From: Bdellovibrionota bacterium
Lineage (GTDB): Bacteria > Bdellovibrionota_C > UBA2361
Direction: 5' to 3'
DNA: 64,000 bases
NCBI GenBank assembly: GCA_044352465.1
Contig: JBILDU010000004.1
Location: 427 to 64,426, forward strand
Made by a program: the position numbers
Part shown: positions 27,001-33,000 of the stretch, piece by piece
How the letters are laid out: each line of letters begins with the position of its first letter
Position numbering within the stretch: the stretch's first letter is position 1

Positions 27001-30000
27001 TTGGATTCGGGTCGTAAGCTGGATAAGGGTCTCAACTGCTGAATCGGCGATCGTGAGTGCGCTTAAGCCGTCGCTCACGTTCTGCGCACCACGGGTAAAG
27101 ACACGGGACTTTGCGGTGAGCGCATCGGCGATCGAAAGCCCCGCCGCATCATCGGACGCGCGGTTAATACGCTGCCCCGTGGAGAGGCGTTGATACACCT
27201 GCCCTATCCGGTCACTGGCTTGACCGAGGCTGCGCTGACTCTTCAGCGCATCGAGGTTACTTCCTATCCTCACCGTCACAACGCCGCTCTCCGTGCGGAA
27301 TACTTCTCTACACTCGAATAAAGCGGCTAAATCATCAGTTTCGTTTACAAATGGGCGCTCTTTGTCTGCCGGGATGGTGAATTTTCGTAGAGTGGGTAGG
27401 GCCCCTCCCCTCCCATCCTCTCGGCATCGTCCGAAAAACTCGCAGGTGAGGGCTGTTTTAAATACGCGGAAGGCAACGGTAACCCAAAAAACGCGATACT
27501 ATCGGGGTGACAGTCCTTGAATCGTTCCATCATCTCGTCGCGCTTTTGTGGCCCCAGCGGTGTCTCGTGTGCGAGCGGGCGCTCGCTCGACAAGAGGTTT
27601 GCTCCGGCTGCCTACCACCGGTTCCGAATTTTCTGGGTGGACCGCGGTGCCACACCTGTTGGAGTTCGCTCCCTGAGCCAAACGATCGGTGTGGGGCGTG
27701 CAAGCTTTTCCCCCCACTTTTTAGGTACGAGCGGTACTTGTGGCGCTATAGCGGCGCCATCGCGTCGATCATTCGTATTATAAAATATCGGCCCAGTAAG
27801 CGACTCACGGTCGCGCTCGCTGAGCACGTTGCCCCCCGTATCGCTACTCTTTTCCCCCGCAACGATTGGGATCTCATCATCCCGACGCCCGCAACGTTAC
27901 CGAGTCTCCGCTCGCGAGGATTTAATCAGTGCGCGGTGCTGGCGCGGTATGTGGGCGCAGAGCTACGCATCCCGATCGCACTGACAGCGCTTGTCCATCA
28001 CGGCTCGCGGATCCCCCAAGCTTCACTTTCTCTCGAAAAGCGGGCGCGCAACGTGCGGCACGCTTTTAGCGCGAGCTCTCACCGGATCGTGGGTAAGCGC
28101 TGCCTCCTTATCGATGATGTAGCCACAACGGGCGCAACAAGCACCGCCGCGACGCAGGCGCTGCTCCGCGGCGGTGCTGCAACGGTGGACCTTTTCACCC
28201 TTGCCCGCAGCGATGCCTGGGGAGAATACCGGTATGAGATTCATCGAAGCTTTGCCTGAAACGCCTAAACGTGGGGTGTTTTCTGAGCACAAAAACCACA
28301 CCGAGAGCCAATTCTAAATCCTGTTCTAAACCAAGCCGGTATACGAAGGTGTTTTTCGTTCAATCCAATTAAACTAACTTCTGAGCTCCCGTCGCGGGCT
28401 AAGCTCCTTTCCCACACCCTGTGGATTACCTGTGGATAACTCGGGGAGAAAAGGCAACAAACCAACTAGATTTTCGTTTTTCTTGAGAGAAATTGGTTGA
28501 TTTTGAGTGAGCCAAGGAATAATCCAAGGGACGAGAGTAAGGAGAACGTGATCGTTCGACGAAGATCCTTACAAATCCCGTCGAAACCGCTGCAATGCGG
28601 AGACAACGGCTGAAGACCGCGGCGTGATCGGAAAGATTGGCGGGGCTTCGGAGAGGGCTCGGTGGTGACATCGAGGTACCCTTTGGTTTTTCAAGATCTT
28701 TGGGTTTGCGGTGAGCCGGTTTGCGGATCGGTACTGCGGACAAGCGATGATGTTTTAGGTAACTAACTCTTCTTCGAGAGGGCCACTCACCGTTTTTTCC
28801 AACGACTTCGGTCGGTGGGTGAGGAGCGGTAGAGTTCGGCGTCGCAAGGGAGGAGCGCTAGAGCGGTCGAGGTGAAAGCTTCGGCGACAGAGCGCTTCAC
28901 CGAGCGTACGTGACGTCCACCGGGAAACCGGTGAGGAAGATCGCTGGGAAGCCAGCGTCAGAGACTCTCGGTGTTGGTAGAGCCGCGGCTCTGATTCGAA
29001 GGATCATCCGCGCGCACCCTGCCCCACCGTGGAGGTAAGACCCCTCGCGAGAGCTTAGATTCGTTTCAGTCCCGACGTGCGGACCCTCACGGGTTTGGCG
29101 GCGGGTGAAACGGCGCGGTCGGTTAAACGACAAGCGTCGGAATTCCTCGCCCACCCTGACGGGACGGCGGGGACGCAACGGAGCAATCTTTTAGAGATCG
29201 ATCCTCCGTTGTCGGCTGAAGCAGATAGGCGTTCGCGAGCGAGCGTTCCCAGGGGTCGGGCTTACGGGCTCGATTCGCATGGGAAACTCGTCGAGCGTCC
29301 CCGAAGAGGATTCCTTTCTCCGAACGGAGCTTTGTATTTCGCCGTGCTGCGAGGACTTTCAGGAGTGTATCGCATGCGATCCGGCTCCCCCTAGGGTGAT
29401 GACCGGGCGGGTCGGATCGAAGGTGGAACGGCTTCGTTCAAAGGTGTGAGTGTGACGACATCCCCGCTGCGGGGAGGCTTCCATCGGGGTTCCCTCGGTG
29501 GGAAGCGTTCCCGCGGTAGCTCCGGTACATCACGGAGGCTCAAGGATGACGTTACGCCGGCTCCAACGTCGAGCGGCCGGGTGCATTGAAATCTCTTCTT
29601 CGGAAGGATGGTAGATCCCGGTTTTTCGATGCGGTTCGGAGTCGGTTATGCATCGACGGTGGGCAGCTCGAGCCGACTTCGGTCGAGCGTTTCGAGGCGC
29701 TGAGGTGAAATCCCTCAGCGGTGGAATCGAAGCTGCACAAAATCCAACGTCGGTGTGGGAAGATCGAGAGGATCGAGCGATCGGTTCTCCCCTTCCCCGG
29801 TCGGCTGTGTCGAGCCGGCCGTCCCCGCCGGGAGGAATCGGTAACGGTTCTGGGGCGGCGGGGATAGAGCGTTAAGCGCAAGCGCCGTGTTCGTGTGCAC
29901 CACGAACTACGCCGGAGCGGGTCGCTCCCGGGTGACACCGGGTGAGGATGCTTCGGAGGAGGGAAACACGCAGGAACGTTCGGCAGGGTCACCGCGTGAG

Positions 30001-33000
30001 CGGTGGCTGGAGGCGCGGGTCGCCCTGGACGGGGTCGGTCGGTGTAAAAGCTGGTCGAGCCTATGGGGGCGGCGCTGAAAAGGTACGGAGACACGCAACC
30101 GTTTGTTGACCCAAACAGGTGGCGGAGGTCGTATCGAGCTTGGGGGGTAAAACTTTCGAGCCAGGTGCTTTGGTGGTGTGGCCGCAAGGTGGCATCGTTG
30201 GAAGCAGCGCGTCGGGGGTCGAATCGCAGCGTTGTCTAAAGCCGGCCGTTCTGGAAACGGACGGCTGGATGAGGATGGTGCTCAATCGACCCTTCTAGCG
30301 TGGGGACGCATCCCGGTAAAACGGGGCGACGAGGGGGAAACCCTTCGGGGGGCTTAAAGGCCCCGCGGGTGAGTAGCCCGGCTGAGCGAAGAACTCCCCT
30401 CACGTTAGACCGTGTGCACTTTTGTGGGTGCGTGTTGCTGCGGGTTTGGCCCGACGCAAAGCCACCCCGGACGGTTCGCTCACACCGCTGTAAGGCGGAG
30501 GAAAGAGCGGGTCGTTTTCGGACAAACCGTGACTTCGTTAGAAGCTTGGCGGCTGAAAGGCAGCGAGCTTGAAGCGCGGAGCCGACCAACTCTTTGGAGG
30601 AAACTTCAAAGATGGCACCGAAATTCAGCTTGGTTCGAGGGTAAAAGCTCAGCTCAAGTTGAGACAAGGGCGGTCGGAGGGTGCCCTCCTCGCAAGTGGA
30701 GGGGCTCGCTAGGGGTCCGCTATTGAGCAAAACTTTCGTGATCGTTTATCAGGCGCGTCACGGGTCTTGTTCGGTTGAGCGCTCATTAAAAAGTGCTCAA
30801 GTGAAGCGGTAAAGTCGGGATGAAAATCGAGCCCCAACGTCCGAAAGGTGTCGCATCAACGTCGATGTGAATCGACAAGAGTTACACTTTTCACCATGGA
30901 CGCGACGAAGCCAAAAGCTCGTCGCGTTTTTTTTGCTGCTGCCACTATGCGGGGAGAGGGAACAGCGTGGCAATACCCTTTTTGTGTGAGGACCATACCC
31001 ATTTCAAGATTGAAGACGAGGCAAAACAACACCATGAACACTGTCACTATTGCAGCGGAACCGTTTGAGGGGGAACTTCCTTCGACCGAGCAAGCGATCG
31101 TCAACGCGGGTTTCGCCCGGCACACAACCGGGGAGGGGGCTCCCCCCTTCGAGCGAAAGAGGCTCGTCTGGCGAGCTCACGGCGAGGATGGGTCCCTCGT
31201 GGGTGTCGCCACTGCAGATCTTCTCTGGGATTGGATCTACCTCGACGAATTGTGGGTCGATGAGAGTTGCCGGGGCACCGGACTCGGCAAAGAGCTCCTT
31301 GAGCGGGTCGAACGATACGCGGAGAGACAAAAACTCTCCGGCGTCTGGCTCTGGACCCAATCGTGGCAAGCTGAGGCTTTTTATCAGCGCTGTGGCTATG
31401 CTGAGTTTACCCGCTTTGAGGACTTCCCGAAGGGGCATGCCCGTATCGGATTTCGCAAGGACCTGCGGAGCTCACTCTGATTCATCGCGTCAACCCGCCT
31501 TTGAGGGATGCCCCTTGACTCCCCCACCCCGATCGCCTACCCACAAGGGACGTTTTTAAGGGATCTGCTATGGCCAAGACCGGAGAAGTGTTCGAGAAAC
31601 TCACCGCGGTTATCGCGAGGCTCCGCGATCCACATGGGGGGTGCCCGTGGGACTTGGAGCAGACCCACGCGACGTTAAAGCCGTACCTCATCGAAGAGGC
31701 GTACGAAACGATCGAGGCGATCGACCGACACCCTGAGAAACTCCCCGAGGAGTTAGGCGATGTGCTCCTTCAGGTGGTACTTCATGCACAGGTCGGAAAA
31801 GACGGGGGCACGTTCTCGATCGACACGGTTGTGGAGGGGCTCACCCAAAAGCTTATCTCACGCCATCCACACGTCTTCGGCGAAACGGTAGCCAAGGACT
31901 CGCGGCAGGTACTTGAGAACTGGGAGGCGCTAAAGAAAAAGGAGCGCACCGCGGATGAGAGTATCCTCTCCGGAGTTCCAGGGTCTTTACCGGGGCTTCT
32001 TAAAGCGCAACGTATCGGGGAGAAAGTTGCGCGGGTGGGATTCGACTGGGCGGACGCCGCCGGGGTCGCGGATAAAGTCAGCGAGGAGCTCGCTGAGTTT
32101 TTAGAGGCACGGAAAGAGGCGACCAAGGAGGACCGTGCCCACCTTGAGGAGGAGCTCGGAGACCTTTTATTTTCGCTCGTTCAATTCGCCCGCAAGCTGG
32201 GCGTCGACGCTGAAGATTGTCTCCAACGGGGGAATCAAAAATTCATCGAGCGCTTCCAAAAGCTCGAAAAGCTCGCGGGGCCGGAGATGAAATCGCTCGG
32301 CCTTCCAAGGCTCACTGAATTGTGGAATCAGGTAAAGAGCTCCGAGCCGGGTCGTTCAGCGTAGGCTCTTTGCCGGGCCAACATAACTTCTTGTCGGAGA
32401 GCGGGAACGTGAAACAGAGTTGTTCACCGTCCACCGTTACGATCCCGTCCGGCTTAAAATCGGGGAAAGCCCCCCGTAAAATTCTCTCGAGACCGACGCA
32501 GTTGAATTTCCAACTCCTGCCCGGCTCTATTTCGCGTACCTCACAATAAGGTATCGCCCACTCAAGAAAGCCACGGCGAATAAATTCGATCGTTATGCCC
32601 CCATTTTCAGATCTAATCCGTACTTTGAGACAGAAAAGTCCACCCTCATCTTTATATTCACTGCCGACGCAAAGGTCGAAGCTAATTCGATCTCTCTGAA
32701 CCTCATCCCATCGCATCGGAGAAACACAGTACAGGCGACCGTCGAAAACGAACTCGATCATGTCTCGTGGGTAGCCCTCCCCGATAGTCTGGATAAACGG
32801 AATAGCCAGAGCATTCAACGACCCTTAAACGGGTTTGATTCCCCCCGCTATCGCTCGGGTCGATCTCTCATAACGGTCAGCGCCGCCCGGAGCGGTTGCG
32901 CCCCCACTCCATCCCATGGAAGCGCCTCAATCGAGTGCACCTGTGCGCCTTTGGTGAGTAGATGATCGAAGGAAAAGAGGCGTGTAAGCGGCCAGGTGTC

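Follow-up and report, generated by a model that had tools for sequence, protein, structure and literature searches.

A conserved, non-coding and highly structured RNA locus of about 2.4 kb between comF and mazG in three lineages of uncultured bacteria

The locus and its lack of coding signal

The present analysis concerns a stretch of 64,000 nucleotides (nt) of contig JBILDU010000004.1 from a Bdellovibrionota bacterium (assembly GCA_044352465.1), hereafter the window, in which comF and a GNAT acetyltransferase gene stand 2.77 kb apart. This interval contains only composition-driven open reading frames (ORFs), mostly antisense, and it harbors on its plus strand a single-copy structured RNA of about 2,389 nt, which belongs to no Rfam 15 family and lies in a conserved comF-RNA-mazG synteny (Table 1). 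The explanation that accounts best for the evidence as a whole, and that we consider very probably correct, is an RNA gene of about 2.39 kb, single-copy and structured, with ends of its own and a possible architectural function. The interval had been singled out earlier in a reading of the window made without database searches (the sequence-only reading), and the gene boundaries given there around comF and the GNAT gene proved accurate, with Pfam matches supporting the gene identities.

Homologous sequences were found in three lineages (A, B and C) of related uncultured, largely freshwater bacteria. A comF-based search, with one genome per species, led to L001, a contig of a metagenome-assembled genome (MAG) labelled Pseudomonadota, whose 2.7 kb after comF align end to end with the window at 72-73% identity. 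An 18-mer of the most conserved block retrieved seven true metagenome contigs from the Joint Genome Institute (JGI), and ENA, Logan and further JGI contigs were added through gene-call look-ups. Lineage A thus consists of the window, L166 (identical to the window) and L163-165; lineage B of L027, L030, L028, L025, L033, L034, L035 and L167; and lineage C of L001, L020, L023, L029 and L031. In all three lineages the upstream neighbor of the RNA is comF (L166 for A, L035/L167 for B, L001 for C), and the full loci of B (L167) and C (L001) repeat the order comF-RNA-terminator-mazG.

The locus is non-coding. Its long minus-strand ORFs (29552-30187 and 30236-30730) gave no Pfam match, and composition alone suffices to produce long antisense frames because the antisense strand is C-rich. 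Mismatches are spread over the three codon phases as 203/208/220 in the RNA versus 48/44/99 in comF, codon periodicity is absent in every 300-nt sub-window of the RNA, and a single indel out of 21 in the RNA alignment is divisible by three. One plus-strand ORF at RNA positions ~395-907, publicly annotated as a hypothetical protein (e.g., MFM1847653.1), is open in lineages B and C with ~50% amino acid (aa) identity and is frameshifted in the window, while five ORFs of 25-41 aa are open in all lineages, with changes that fall evenly over codon positions and are mostly nonsynonymous. A protein search with the spurious ORF against 1.84 billion representatives returned only the same two spurious clusters; the spurious-ORF searches led to lineages B and C only, plus one repetitive 2170-aa false match; and the concatenated six-frame ORF translations, submitted as one protein query, shared words with 8000 candidates, none of them significant. 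The interval had been described as devoid of credible coding potential, and the missing Pfam matches, the missing codon periodicity and the non-triplet indels all agree with that description; the periodicity check proposed at the time was run, and the homologous regions keep no ORF and no codon-periodic substitution.

The base composition of the locus is equally distinctive. Between 28540 and 30934 the plus strand carries 833 G versus 599 C (skew +0.16; windowed skew +0.08 to +0.24), counts that confirm the G>C bias claimed for this strand, and the skew is limited to the RNA locus. The hexamer CTTCGG occurs seven times and CCGAAG once, exactly where they had been reported; the chance expectation, put at ~0.5 for uniform composition at the time, is ~1.5 when predicted from 40 occurrences in the 64 kb of the window, so that the enrichment is ~4.7-fold (Poisson P ~1e-3). 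Only three of the seven CTTCGG sites form C(UUCG)G hairpin loops in the consensus fold.

Fold and compensatory change

The RNA is highly structured. The minimum free energy (MFE) of positions 28541-30925 is -1147 kcal/mol, whereas 23 dinucleotide shuffles average -1003±11 kcal/mol (z -13.5), and a coding control of equal length gives a z of -0.5. By strand, the fold energy amounts to -1154 kcal/mol for plus and -882 kcal/mol for minus, that is, ~270 kcal/mol worse. To avoid circularity, the window sequence was folded alone and this fold was then scored on the other lineages, with expected counts derived by permuting the 3' partners among pairs of the same type. Under this scheme, lineage C shows 91 pair-keeping double substitutions versus 24.7±4.3 expected and lineage B shows 21 versus 2.8±1.6, with broken pairs at half the expected number (115 versus 210).

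An RNAalifold consensus computed from a nine-sequence alignment (A1) comprises 739 pairs in 79 helices, with 99.3% of the cells paired, and places ~62% of the RNA bases in pairs within a single ornate fold. Both sides have changed in 119 of the consensus pairs, versus 7-17 when the 3' partners are slid by 1-3 columns; for the first 369 pairs the counting tool found 56 covarying versus 3-12 slid, and none of 500 shuffles reached the observed values. Such maintenance of structure by compensatory change points to selection. The ten helices listed by the sequence-only reading fared well on the whole, since eight are present in the consensus and five show compensatory changes; the hairpin UCCCCG-CUG-CGGGGA is replaced by a longer one, and the bulged helix sits within a consensus helix, 30229-30253/30258-30282. 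Compensatory changes are abundant in the listed helices and in the global fold, and the plus-strand polarity proposed by that reading is supported by the energy asymmetry, by one-sided G-U changes and by a terminator that works in one direction only.

At the level of domains, the predicted fold opens with a 5' domain that encloses four hairpins, followed by a central body held together by predicted long-range helices. Among the latter, 28744-48/30850-54 has one pair changed on both sides, 29349-53/30434-38 has two, and 29032-36/30464-68 and 29439-47/30416-24 have none, so the modelled long-range architecture is only partly supported. The 49 hairpin loops include 26 tetraloops (15 GNRA, three UUCG, one UACG), to which four GUAAAA hexaloops are to be added, and between lineages GNRA is exchanged for GNRA and, once, UUCG for GAAA. 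The most conserved hairpin carries a block that is identical in all nine sequences, flanked by a covarying helix, and it contains an internal loop, UUGAAAUC/GAUGGUAG, that may be of the loop-E or bulged-G-like type; GAUGGUAG equals what we take to be one strand of loop E in Escherichia coli 5S ribosomal RNA (rRNA). This hairpin is our likeliest candidate for the docking site of a partner. Several further invariant single-stranded blocks are likewise flanked by covarying helices.

Two sites near the 3' end vary in length and behave like expansion segments. At the first, lineage B has an extra hairpin of ~36 nt inserted at 30661/30662, inside which the B members differ mostly by G-U changes, and lineage C is without ~30644-30661. 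At the second, lineage C carries a tandem-repeat insertion near 30819 whose length (11-43 nt) varies among its members. Within the RNA we found no internal repeats or duplicated modules, no terminal repeats, no pseudoknot with covariation and no conserved palindromic kissing loop; the 11-nt tetraloop receptor is absent, and CCUAAG does not occur. A pairing of the two ends, UCGACG/CGUCGA, checked by eye, was discarded, as it is lost in lineage C.

Table 1. Features of the comF-mazG locus (window coordinates)
Feature	Position	Strand	Details
Structured RNA, ~2,389 nt	28541-30929	+	Bounded contigs, 739-pair consensus, MFE z, no coding signal
5' domain, four hairpins enclosed	28561-28701	+	Closing helix 28561-28567/28695-28701, 3 pairs changed on both sides
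Central body	28744-30854	+	Predicted long-range helices, RNAalifold consensus
Most conserved hairpin	29567-29631	+	Invariant 41-nt block 29586-29626, C(UUCG)G cap
Variable expansion site	30620-30665	+	Alignment A1 columns 2121-2174
Second variable site	30811-30822	+	Alignment A1 columns 2336-2378
Intrinsic terminator	30898-30934	+	Bulged hairpin 30898-30929 plus U8 30927-30934
Putative promoter	28497-28525	+	-35 TTGATT 28497-28502; -10-like AATAAT/TAATCC 28518-28525
Conserved block CCTTTCCCACACC.TGTGGATT.CCTGTGGATAACTC	28405-28440		36 nt, kept in A, B, C
comF (ComFC-type phosphoribosyltransferase-like gene)	27507-28259	+	Pfam DZR_2 (double zinc ribbon), Pribosyltran
GNAT acetyltransferase gene	31034-31480	+	Pfam Acetyltransf_1; domain-bearing part begins at 31034
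mazG, conserved downstream neighbor	31570-32364	+	Pfam MazG

Transcript ends and upstream signals

The ends of the RNA are suggested by environmental contigs. The 5' ends of four contigs of lineages B and C fall at 28541 (L029, L030), 28544 (L031) and 28546 (L027), in coincidence with the start that had been placed at 28540; these contigs measure 2362-2395 nt, come from different JGI samples and have their 3' ends at 30879-30914, inside the terminator. L023 resembles the four bounded contigs except for a 46-nt unrelated piece at its 5' end, and in total eight contigs are fully contained within the element. The DNA contigs from these lineages (L001, L020, L035, L167) continue into the comF/mazG flanks. 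In lineage A, two Logan contigs from different runs (L163, L164) stop at 30929, the third U of the U-tract. The bounded contigs look like assembled transcripts, and their confinement to the predicted ends suggests a discrete and abundant RNA; from these contig ends we infer that the RNA accumulates as a discrete species of ~2.39 kb. Its 5' end could lie as far up as ~28530 because conservation resumes at 28535, and GAGTAAGGAGAACGT, which spans the RNA start, is common to the three lineages. L163 and L164 reach from 27287 and 27692, respectively, to 30929; they are transcripts that read through from comF into the RNA, or else DNA contigs that broke at the terminator.

A plus-strand intrinsic terminator had been proposed to close the locus, and it is upheld by the fold energy of its hairpin (-18.6 kcal/mol, z -3.45; core stem 30901-30926), by the U8 tract, which is present on the plus strand only, and by the contigs that end at its third U. 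Lineages A, B and C have the same hairpin without any difference, and its bulge and loop kept the consensus scanner from calling it. A terminator for comF at 28320-28356 was considered and found unsupported (-3.6 kcal/mol, z +0.66).

Upstream of the RNA, the -35 element TTGATT is invariant in the three lineages and the -10-like element (28518-28523) reads AATAAT, AATATT and CATACT in A, B and C, respectively. We regard these elements as a putative promoter because they are conserved and placed just upstream of the contig 5' ends, at a distance of 16-44 nt; the remainder of the comF-RNA intergenic stretch is only ~63-65% identical between lineages. About 60-80 nt further upstream of the putative -35 lies the conserved 36-nt block of Table 1, in which two DnaA-box-like 9-mers stand in tandem in minus orientation, TAATCCACA at 28420-28428 and TTATCCACA at 28431-28439, with one and no mismatches to TTATCCACA, respectively, along with an inverted CCCACA half-site. 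Judged by these motifs, the block may be a regulatory site through which DnaA ties in the expression of the RNA. A replication origin was rejected as an interpretation, given that the window contains 13 DnaA boxes versus 6.3±2.9 expected, an enrichment that is not significant, and that the G>C skew does not reach beyond the RNA.

Distribution and inheritance

The RNA has diverged in step with mazG. Nucleotide identities of the RNA are 88.5 (A-B), 73.2 (A-C) and 76.2 (B-C), those of mazG 82.7, 75.4 and 76.7 in the same order, and MazG is 91.5% (A-B) and 86.5% (A-C) identical in aa sequence; the divergence of the RNA is congruent with that of mazG, and the RNA is vertically inherited. ComF (window 27507-28259, L167 1009-1743 and L001 76-591 compared) has changed much faster than its neighbors and is incongruent with them, having aa identities of 61% (A-C) and 52% (A-B). 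Horizontal transfer of the RNA was considered because ComF groups A with C and the RNA groups A with B, and it was dropped once the full locus of L167 showed mazG agreeing with the RNA tree; the ComF of lineage B has simply evolved fast. In L167, the comF region carries a JGI gene call that is in the wrong frame.

Outside the three lineages the element was not encountered. In the more distant Oligoflexia MAG L002, a mazG-size ORF directly follows comF and the element is missing, as it is after the comF relatives at 42-48% identity (P0005, P0009), which means that the synteny does not extend beyond A, B and C. The wider search for a fourth lineage covered exact-word scans, MazG loci, fetched loci and the spurious-ORF protein searches. 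An exact scan of genome contigs with a 20-mer of the invariant block found the lineage-C MAG only, an 18-mer of the same block found nothing among viral contigs, and neither a MazG-based locus search nor an nhmmer profile run over all 115 loci brought further homologues; three 18-mer matches in metagenomes (L024, L026, L032) were chance and were rejected by nhmmer. A 19-mer from the RNA, GCCGGTTTGCGGATCGGTA, has 47 matches in unrelated genomes (L116-L162), by estimate ~10 times the chance number. These matches are unrelated to the RNA, their flanks being without similarity to it; the reverse complement of GCCGGTTTGCGGATCGGTA would encode T-D-P-Q-T-G and may reflect a common peptide motif.

Known RNA families and comparison systems

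At gathering thresholds, a cmscan search with Rfam 15 over the full window detected two transfer RNAs (tRNAs) only, both outside the RNA, the nearer one 3.4 kb away on the other strand. A permissive cmscan of 28200-31100 (E<=10) added three chance-level fragments (a microRNA, a human long non-coding RNA and STnc500; E 2.5-8.9). The Rfam check that had been proposed was thus carried out without a significant family match, and the statement that signatures of rRNA, RNase P, transfer-messenger RNA (tmRNA) and group II introns are lacking agrees with cmscan, which finds none of them, and with ARAGORN, which finds no tmRNA and, on the locus, no tRNA either. Likewise, cmscan gave no match for 6S RNA, group I introns, retrons or HEARO/IS605-type guide RNAs; the gene and Pfam calls include no IscB, TnpB or HNH neighbor and no reverse-transcriptase, maturase or transposase ORF near the RNA. 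A blastn search with 11-mer words gave no match among 5,426 E. coli genomes, rRNA operons included, 50,697 phage records or 72,556 plasmids, and we found no description of such an RNA in the literature.

By its size, its covariation-supported multi-helix fold and its non-coding nature, the RNA belongs descriptively with the large ornate bacterial non-coding RNAs (ncRNAs), while the covariance models of GOLLD, ROOL, OLE and the raiA motif do not recognize it (cmscan, Rfam 15). We therefore regard it as a new RNA family without detectable relatives, within the recognized phenomenon of giant structured bacterial RNAs. To our knowledge, the largest well-supported structured bacterial ncRNAs besides the rRNAs are OLE (~600 nt), the similar-sized ROOL and GOLLD (often >800 nt). 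The suggestion that the present RNA exceeds the known large classes in size holds true, its ~2,389 nt being ~3 times the length of GOLLD.

GOLLD, first identified in metagenomic data, is described as often >800 nt long and as carried by phages or prophages close to tRNA islands (PMC12286853). The RNA described here is similar to it as a very large, ornate and covariation-supported bacterial ncRNA from lake or environmental sequence data, and differs from it in its length of ~2,390 nt, its housekeeping chromosomal context and the absence of a phage match. ROOL is a phage- or prophage-associated RNA that forms an RNA-only nanocage, with a linker at nt 414-464 of its cryo-electron microscopy (cryo-EM) model (PMC12286853). 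It too is a large ornate ncRNA without a known protein partner, and its nanocage is a possible model for the present RNA; however, ROOL is much shorter and associated with phages or prophages, and no match to its model, kissing loop or pseudoknot was seen here.

OLE, with ~600 nt, is mostly restricted to extremophiles and anaerobes of the Bacillota (PMC12054373) and has been proposed to sequester the ribosomal protein bS21/RpsU (PMC12286853, PMC12054373). It is, as the present RNA would be, a chromosomal, abundant, large structured RNA that acts as the scaffold of a ribonucleoprotein (RNP). The OLE partner genes oapA/B/C lie nearby, whereas beside the present RNA only comF and mazG are conserved, and its host is not a member of the Bacillota by the labels of its relatives, which are Pseudomonadota and Oligoflexia MAGs.

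The raiA-motif RNA has ~200 nt, helices P1-P8 and two pseudoknots, with P1, P3-P6, PK1 and PK2 as its core, and occurs mainly in Bacillota and Actinomycetota (PMC12968392). It is a highly expressed single-locus ncRNA, as the present RNA would also be; it differs in phylum, and downstream of the present RNA stands mazG, not raiA or hpf. The raiA-motif RNA is reported to lie directly downstream of comFC, although the raiA paper that we searched does not mention comFC. The analogy drawn with it by the sequence-only reading survives in part: the placement after comF is found in all three lineages, and relatedness is not supported, as there is no match and the present RNA is ~10 times larger.

In build the RNA also resembles 16S/23S rRNA, which shares the kilobase size, the G>C bias, a multidomain fold with long-range helices, GNRA and UNCG loops, lineage-specific expansion hairpins and, probably, a high abundance in RNA-derived assemblies. 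In contrast to rRNA, the present RNA has no small- or large-subunit match at E<=10, is present in a single copy outside any rRNA operon and is far less conserved, being 73% identical between relatives whose MazG proteins are 86% identical.

Proposed mechanism and alternative explanations

We propose that the RNA would act in trans as an architectural RNA. Its ~79 helices would be grouped into domains through long-range helices, and the 15 GNRA tetraloops and four GUAAAA hexaloops would dock into helices and pack them together. The resulting compact particle would form the core of an assembly, either an RNP or one of RNA alone, as in OLE, ROOL and GOLLD; a partner, protein or RNA, would dock mainly at the invariant hairpin 29586-29626, and peripheral hairpins near the 3' end would accept insertions in the manner of expansion segments. 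With its many GNRA and GUAAAA loops, its domain-closing helices and a periphery that tolerates expansions, the RNA seems built for a compact tertiary fold rather than for regulation by base pairing; the RNA does not work through an encoded peptide, and we saw no sign of cis action on a neighboring gene. By analogy with these systems, a role as the architectural core of an RNP or RNA-only particle is plausible, and we put it somewhat below an even chance.

Several observations weigh against this interpretation. Only three lineages are available, which amount effectively to three independent sequences, and the covariation counts are consequently not counts of events; the narrow distribution among related lineages also makes the finding less general and the covariation evidence statistically shallower. 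For several long-range helices covariation gives little support or none, and the RNA evolves about as fast as mazG, with no rRNA-like sequence constraint. With regard to the ends, a consensus promoter scan made no call at the putative promoter, one bounded contig (L033) is labelled METAG, and the lineage-A contigs L163, L164 and L165 run upstream into or through comF, so that read-through or processing from a comF transcript is possible. Finally, the mechanism rests on analogy, and no partner protein, ligand, target, pseudoknot or oligomerization contact has been identified.

Among the alternatives, the two that we take most seriously concern function, and both seem to us unlikely, to the same degree. 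Instead of a passive scaffold, the RNA could be catalytic, a large ribozyme or RNA machine, in keeping with a size, helix count and GNRA density like those of rRNA, group I/II introns and RNase P and with its invariant single-stranded blocks between covarying helices; nevertheless, it matches no Rfam ribozyme, neither a substrate nor splice-site-like ends nor processing products were seen, and its constraint is modest, as the comparison with MazG makes clear. Alternatively, it could act as a decoy or sponge and titrate away an RNA-binding protein, such as a ribosomal protein or a global regulator. The loop-E strand GAUGGUAG in the invariant hairpin, the sequestration of bS21/RpsU proposed for OLE and the motif GGAGG, which occurs 13 times on the plus versus twice on the minus strand, would fit such a role. 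However, composition alone predicts ~7 GGAGG, which makes this enrichment weak, internal repeats or duplicated modules are missing, and a single ornate fold with ~62% of its bases paired is unlike known sponges.

The remaining alternatives concern the nature of the element, and each of them appears quite improbable. The least so is that the RNA is the 3' part of a comF transcript, or a cis element for comF or mazG, processed at ~28541, as the lineage-A contigs that extend from it into or through comF and the lack of a confirmed comF terminator, next to a promoter that is only putative, might suggest. Against this, the -35/-10-like elements are kept in three lineages within an otherwise divergent intergenic region, four contigs of two lineages start within 6 nt of one another, a strong terminator separates the RNA from mazG, the RNA is constrained next to a fast-evolving comF (52-61% aa), and in L002 a mazG-size ORF comes right after comF without the element. 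The same arrangement in L002 means that the ancestor of A-C gained the 2.4 kb or L002 lost them, and together with the lack of homologues elsewhere and an obscure origin it leaves a slightly smaller chance to a selfish or relic element, e.g., an ORF-less mobile RNA or a derivative of a retroelement, without cellular function; yet the element is single copy, has no terminal repeats, no reverse transcriptase or transposase nearby and no intron, retron, phage or plasmid match, its position and orientation are constant, its divergence is congruent with mazG, and compensatory changes imply selection. Marginally less probable again is membership in a known family (raiA, RNase P, a group II intron, an rRNA fragment, OLE, GOLLD or ROOL) after extreme divergence or expansion, for which the place after comF, mirroring that of the raiA-motif RNA, speaks even though the raiA paper searched lends it no support. 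The permissive cmscan finds no such family, no tRNA, tmRNA or E. coli BLAST match exists, and the raiA motif is a small RNA of other phyla with two pseudoknots (PMC12968392). We give virtually no credence to a protein-coding gene, as public annotations imply, or a decayed pseudogene: the frame shared by B and C, the five short open frames and the ORFs annotated by gene callers would favor it, but the long ORF is frameshifted in the window, substitutions are even over codon positions and mostly nonsynonymous, Pfam has no match, and the search of 1.84 billion representatives merely returned the two spurious clusters.

If the reading as a structured RNA gene is followed to its furthest consequence, this would be the first rRNA-sized (~2.4 kb) non-ribosomal structured bacterial RNA and the core of a new RNA machine, a tentative proposition that we consider rather less likely than the architectural role itself. 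That machine would be a large ribozyme or else a particle of megadalton size, RNA-only or RNP, that serves a cellular role of its own. One lineage of uncultured freshwater bacteria would have acquired it, and annotation would overlook it since gene callers cover it with hypothetical proteins. In the OLE/ROOL/GOLLD group, recent cryo-EM structures brought to light assemblies of RNA alone that had not been expected. With its 2.4 kb and ~79 conserved helices, the present RNA would raise the size limit threefold and would show rRNA-scale RNA architecture outside translation. It is also a tractable target, with predicted ends, three variants that carry natural compensatory mutations and an invariant 41-nt hairpin as candidate docking site, and it exposes an annotation blind spot in which similar giant RNAs could hide in other rare lineages.

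Neighboring genes and public annotation

The genes flanking the RNA are comF, the GNAT gene, mazG, a flagellin gene and metabolic genes. The GNAT gene is an insertion specific to lineage A and is not part of the RNA element; it is absent from B (L167 4455-4632) and C (L001 3256-3501), in which the terminator and mazG are separated by a gap of ~200-250 nt.

In public databases the locus is either mis-annotated or unannotated, because hypothetical proteins are called inside it or the stretch is left empty. The hypothetical proteins called within the RNA in public records measure 154-211 aa, e.g., MFM1847653.1 in a lineage-C MAG, the sites of gene calls being 29552-30187 (minus) and 30236-30730 (minus) in the window, 2315-2779 in L020, 419-895 in L033 and 200-1378 in L163. 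On the 137-kb JGI contig L166, the corresponding 2.8 kb carries no gene call.

The flagellin gene upstream of comF (25423-27279, minus strand) encodes an unusually large protein of 618 aa with ~7 FG-GAP repeats between its N- and C-terminal helical domains, and its counterpart in L166 is annotated as 591 aa. In more distant relatives (L021 and the contig with P0009), rsfS, a TPR gene and iPGM form a cluster with comF directly behind it, for which the window region 11243-14060 was compared; in the window itself, iPGM (12498-14057) and comF are separated by ~13 kb that include, besides the flagellin gene, one gene with collagen-like repeats.

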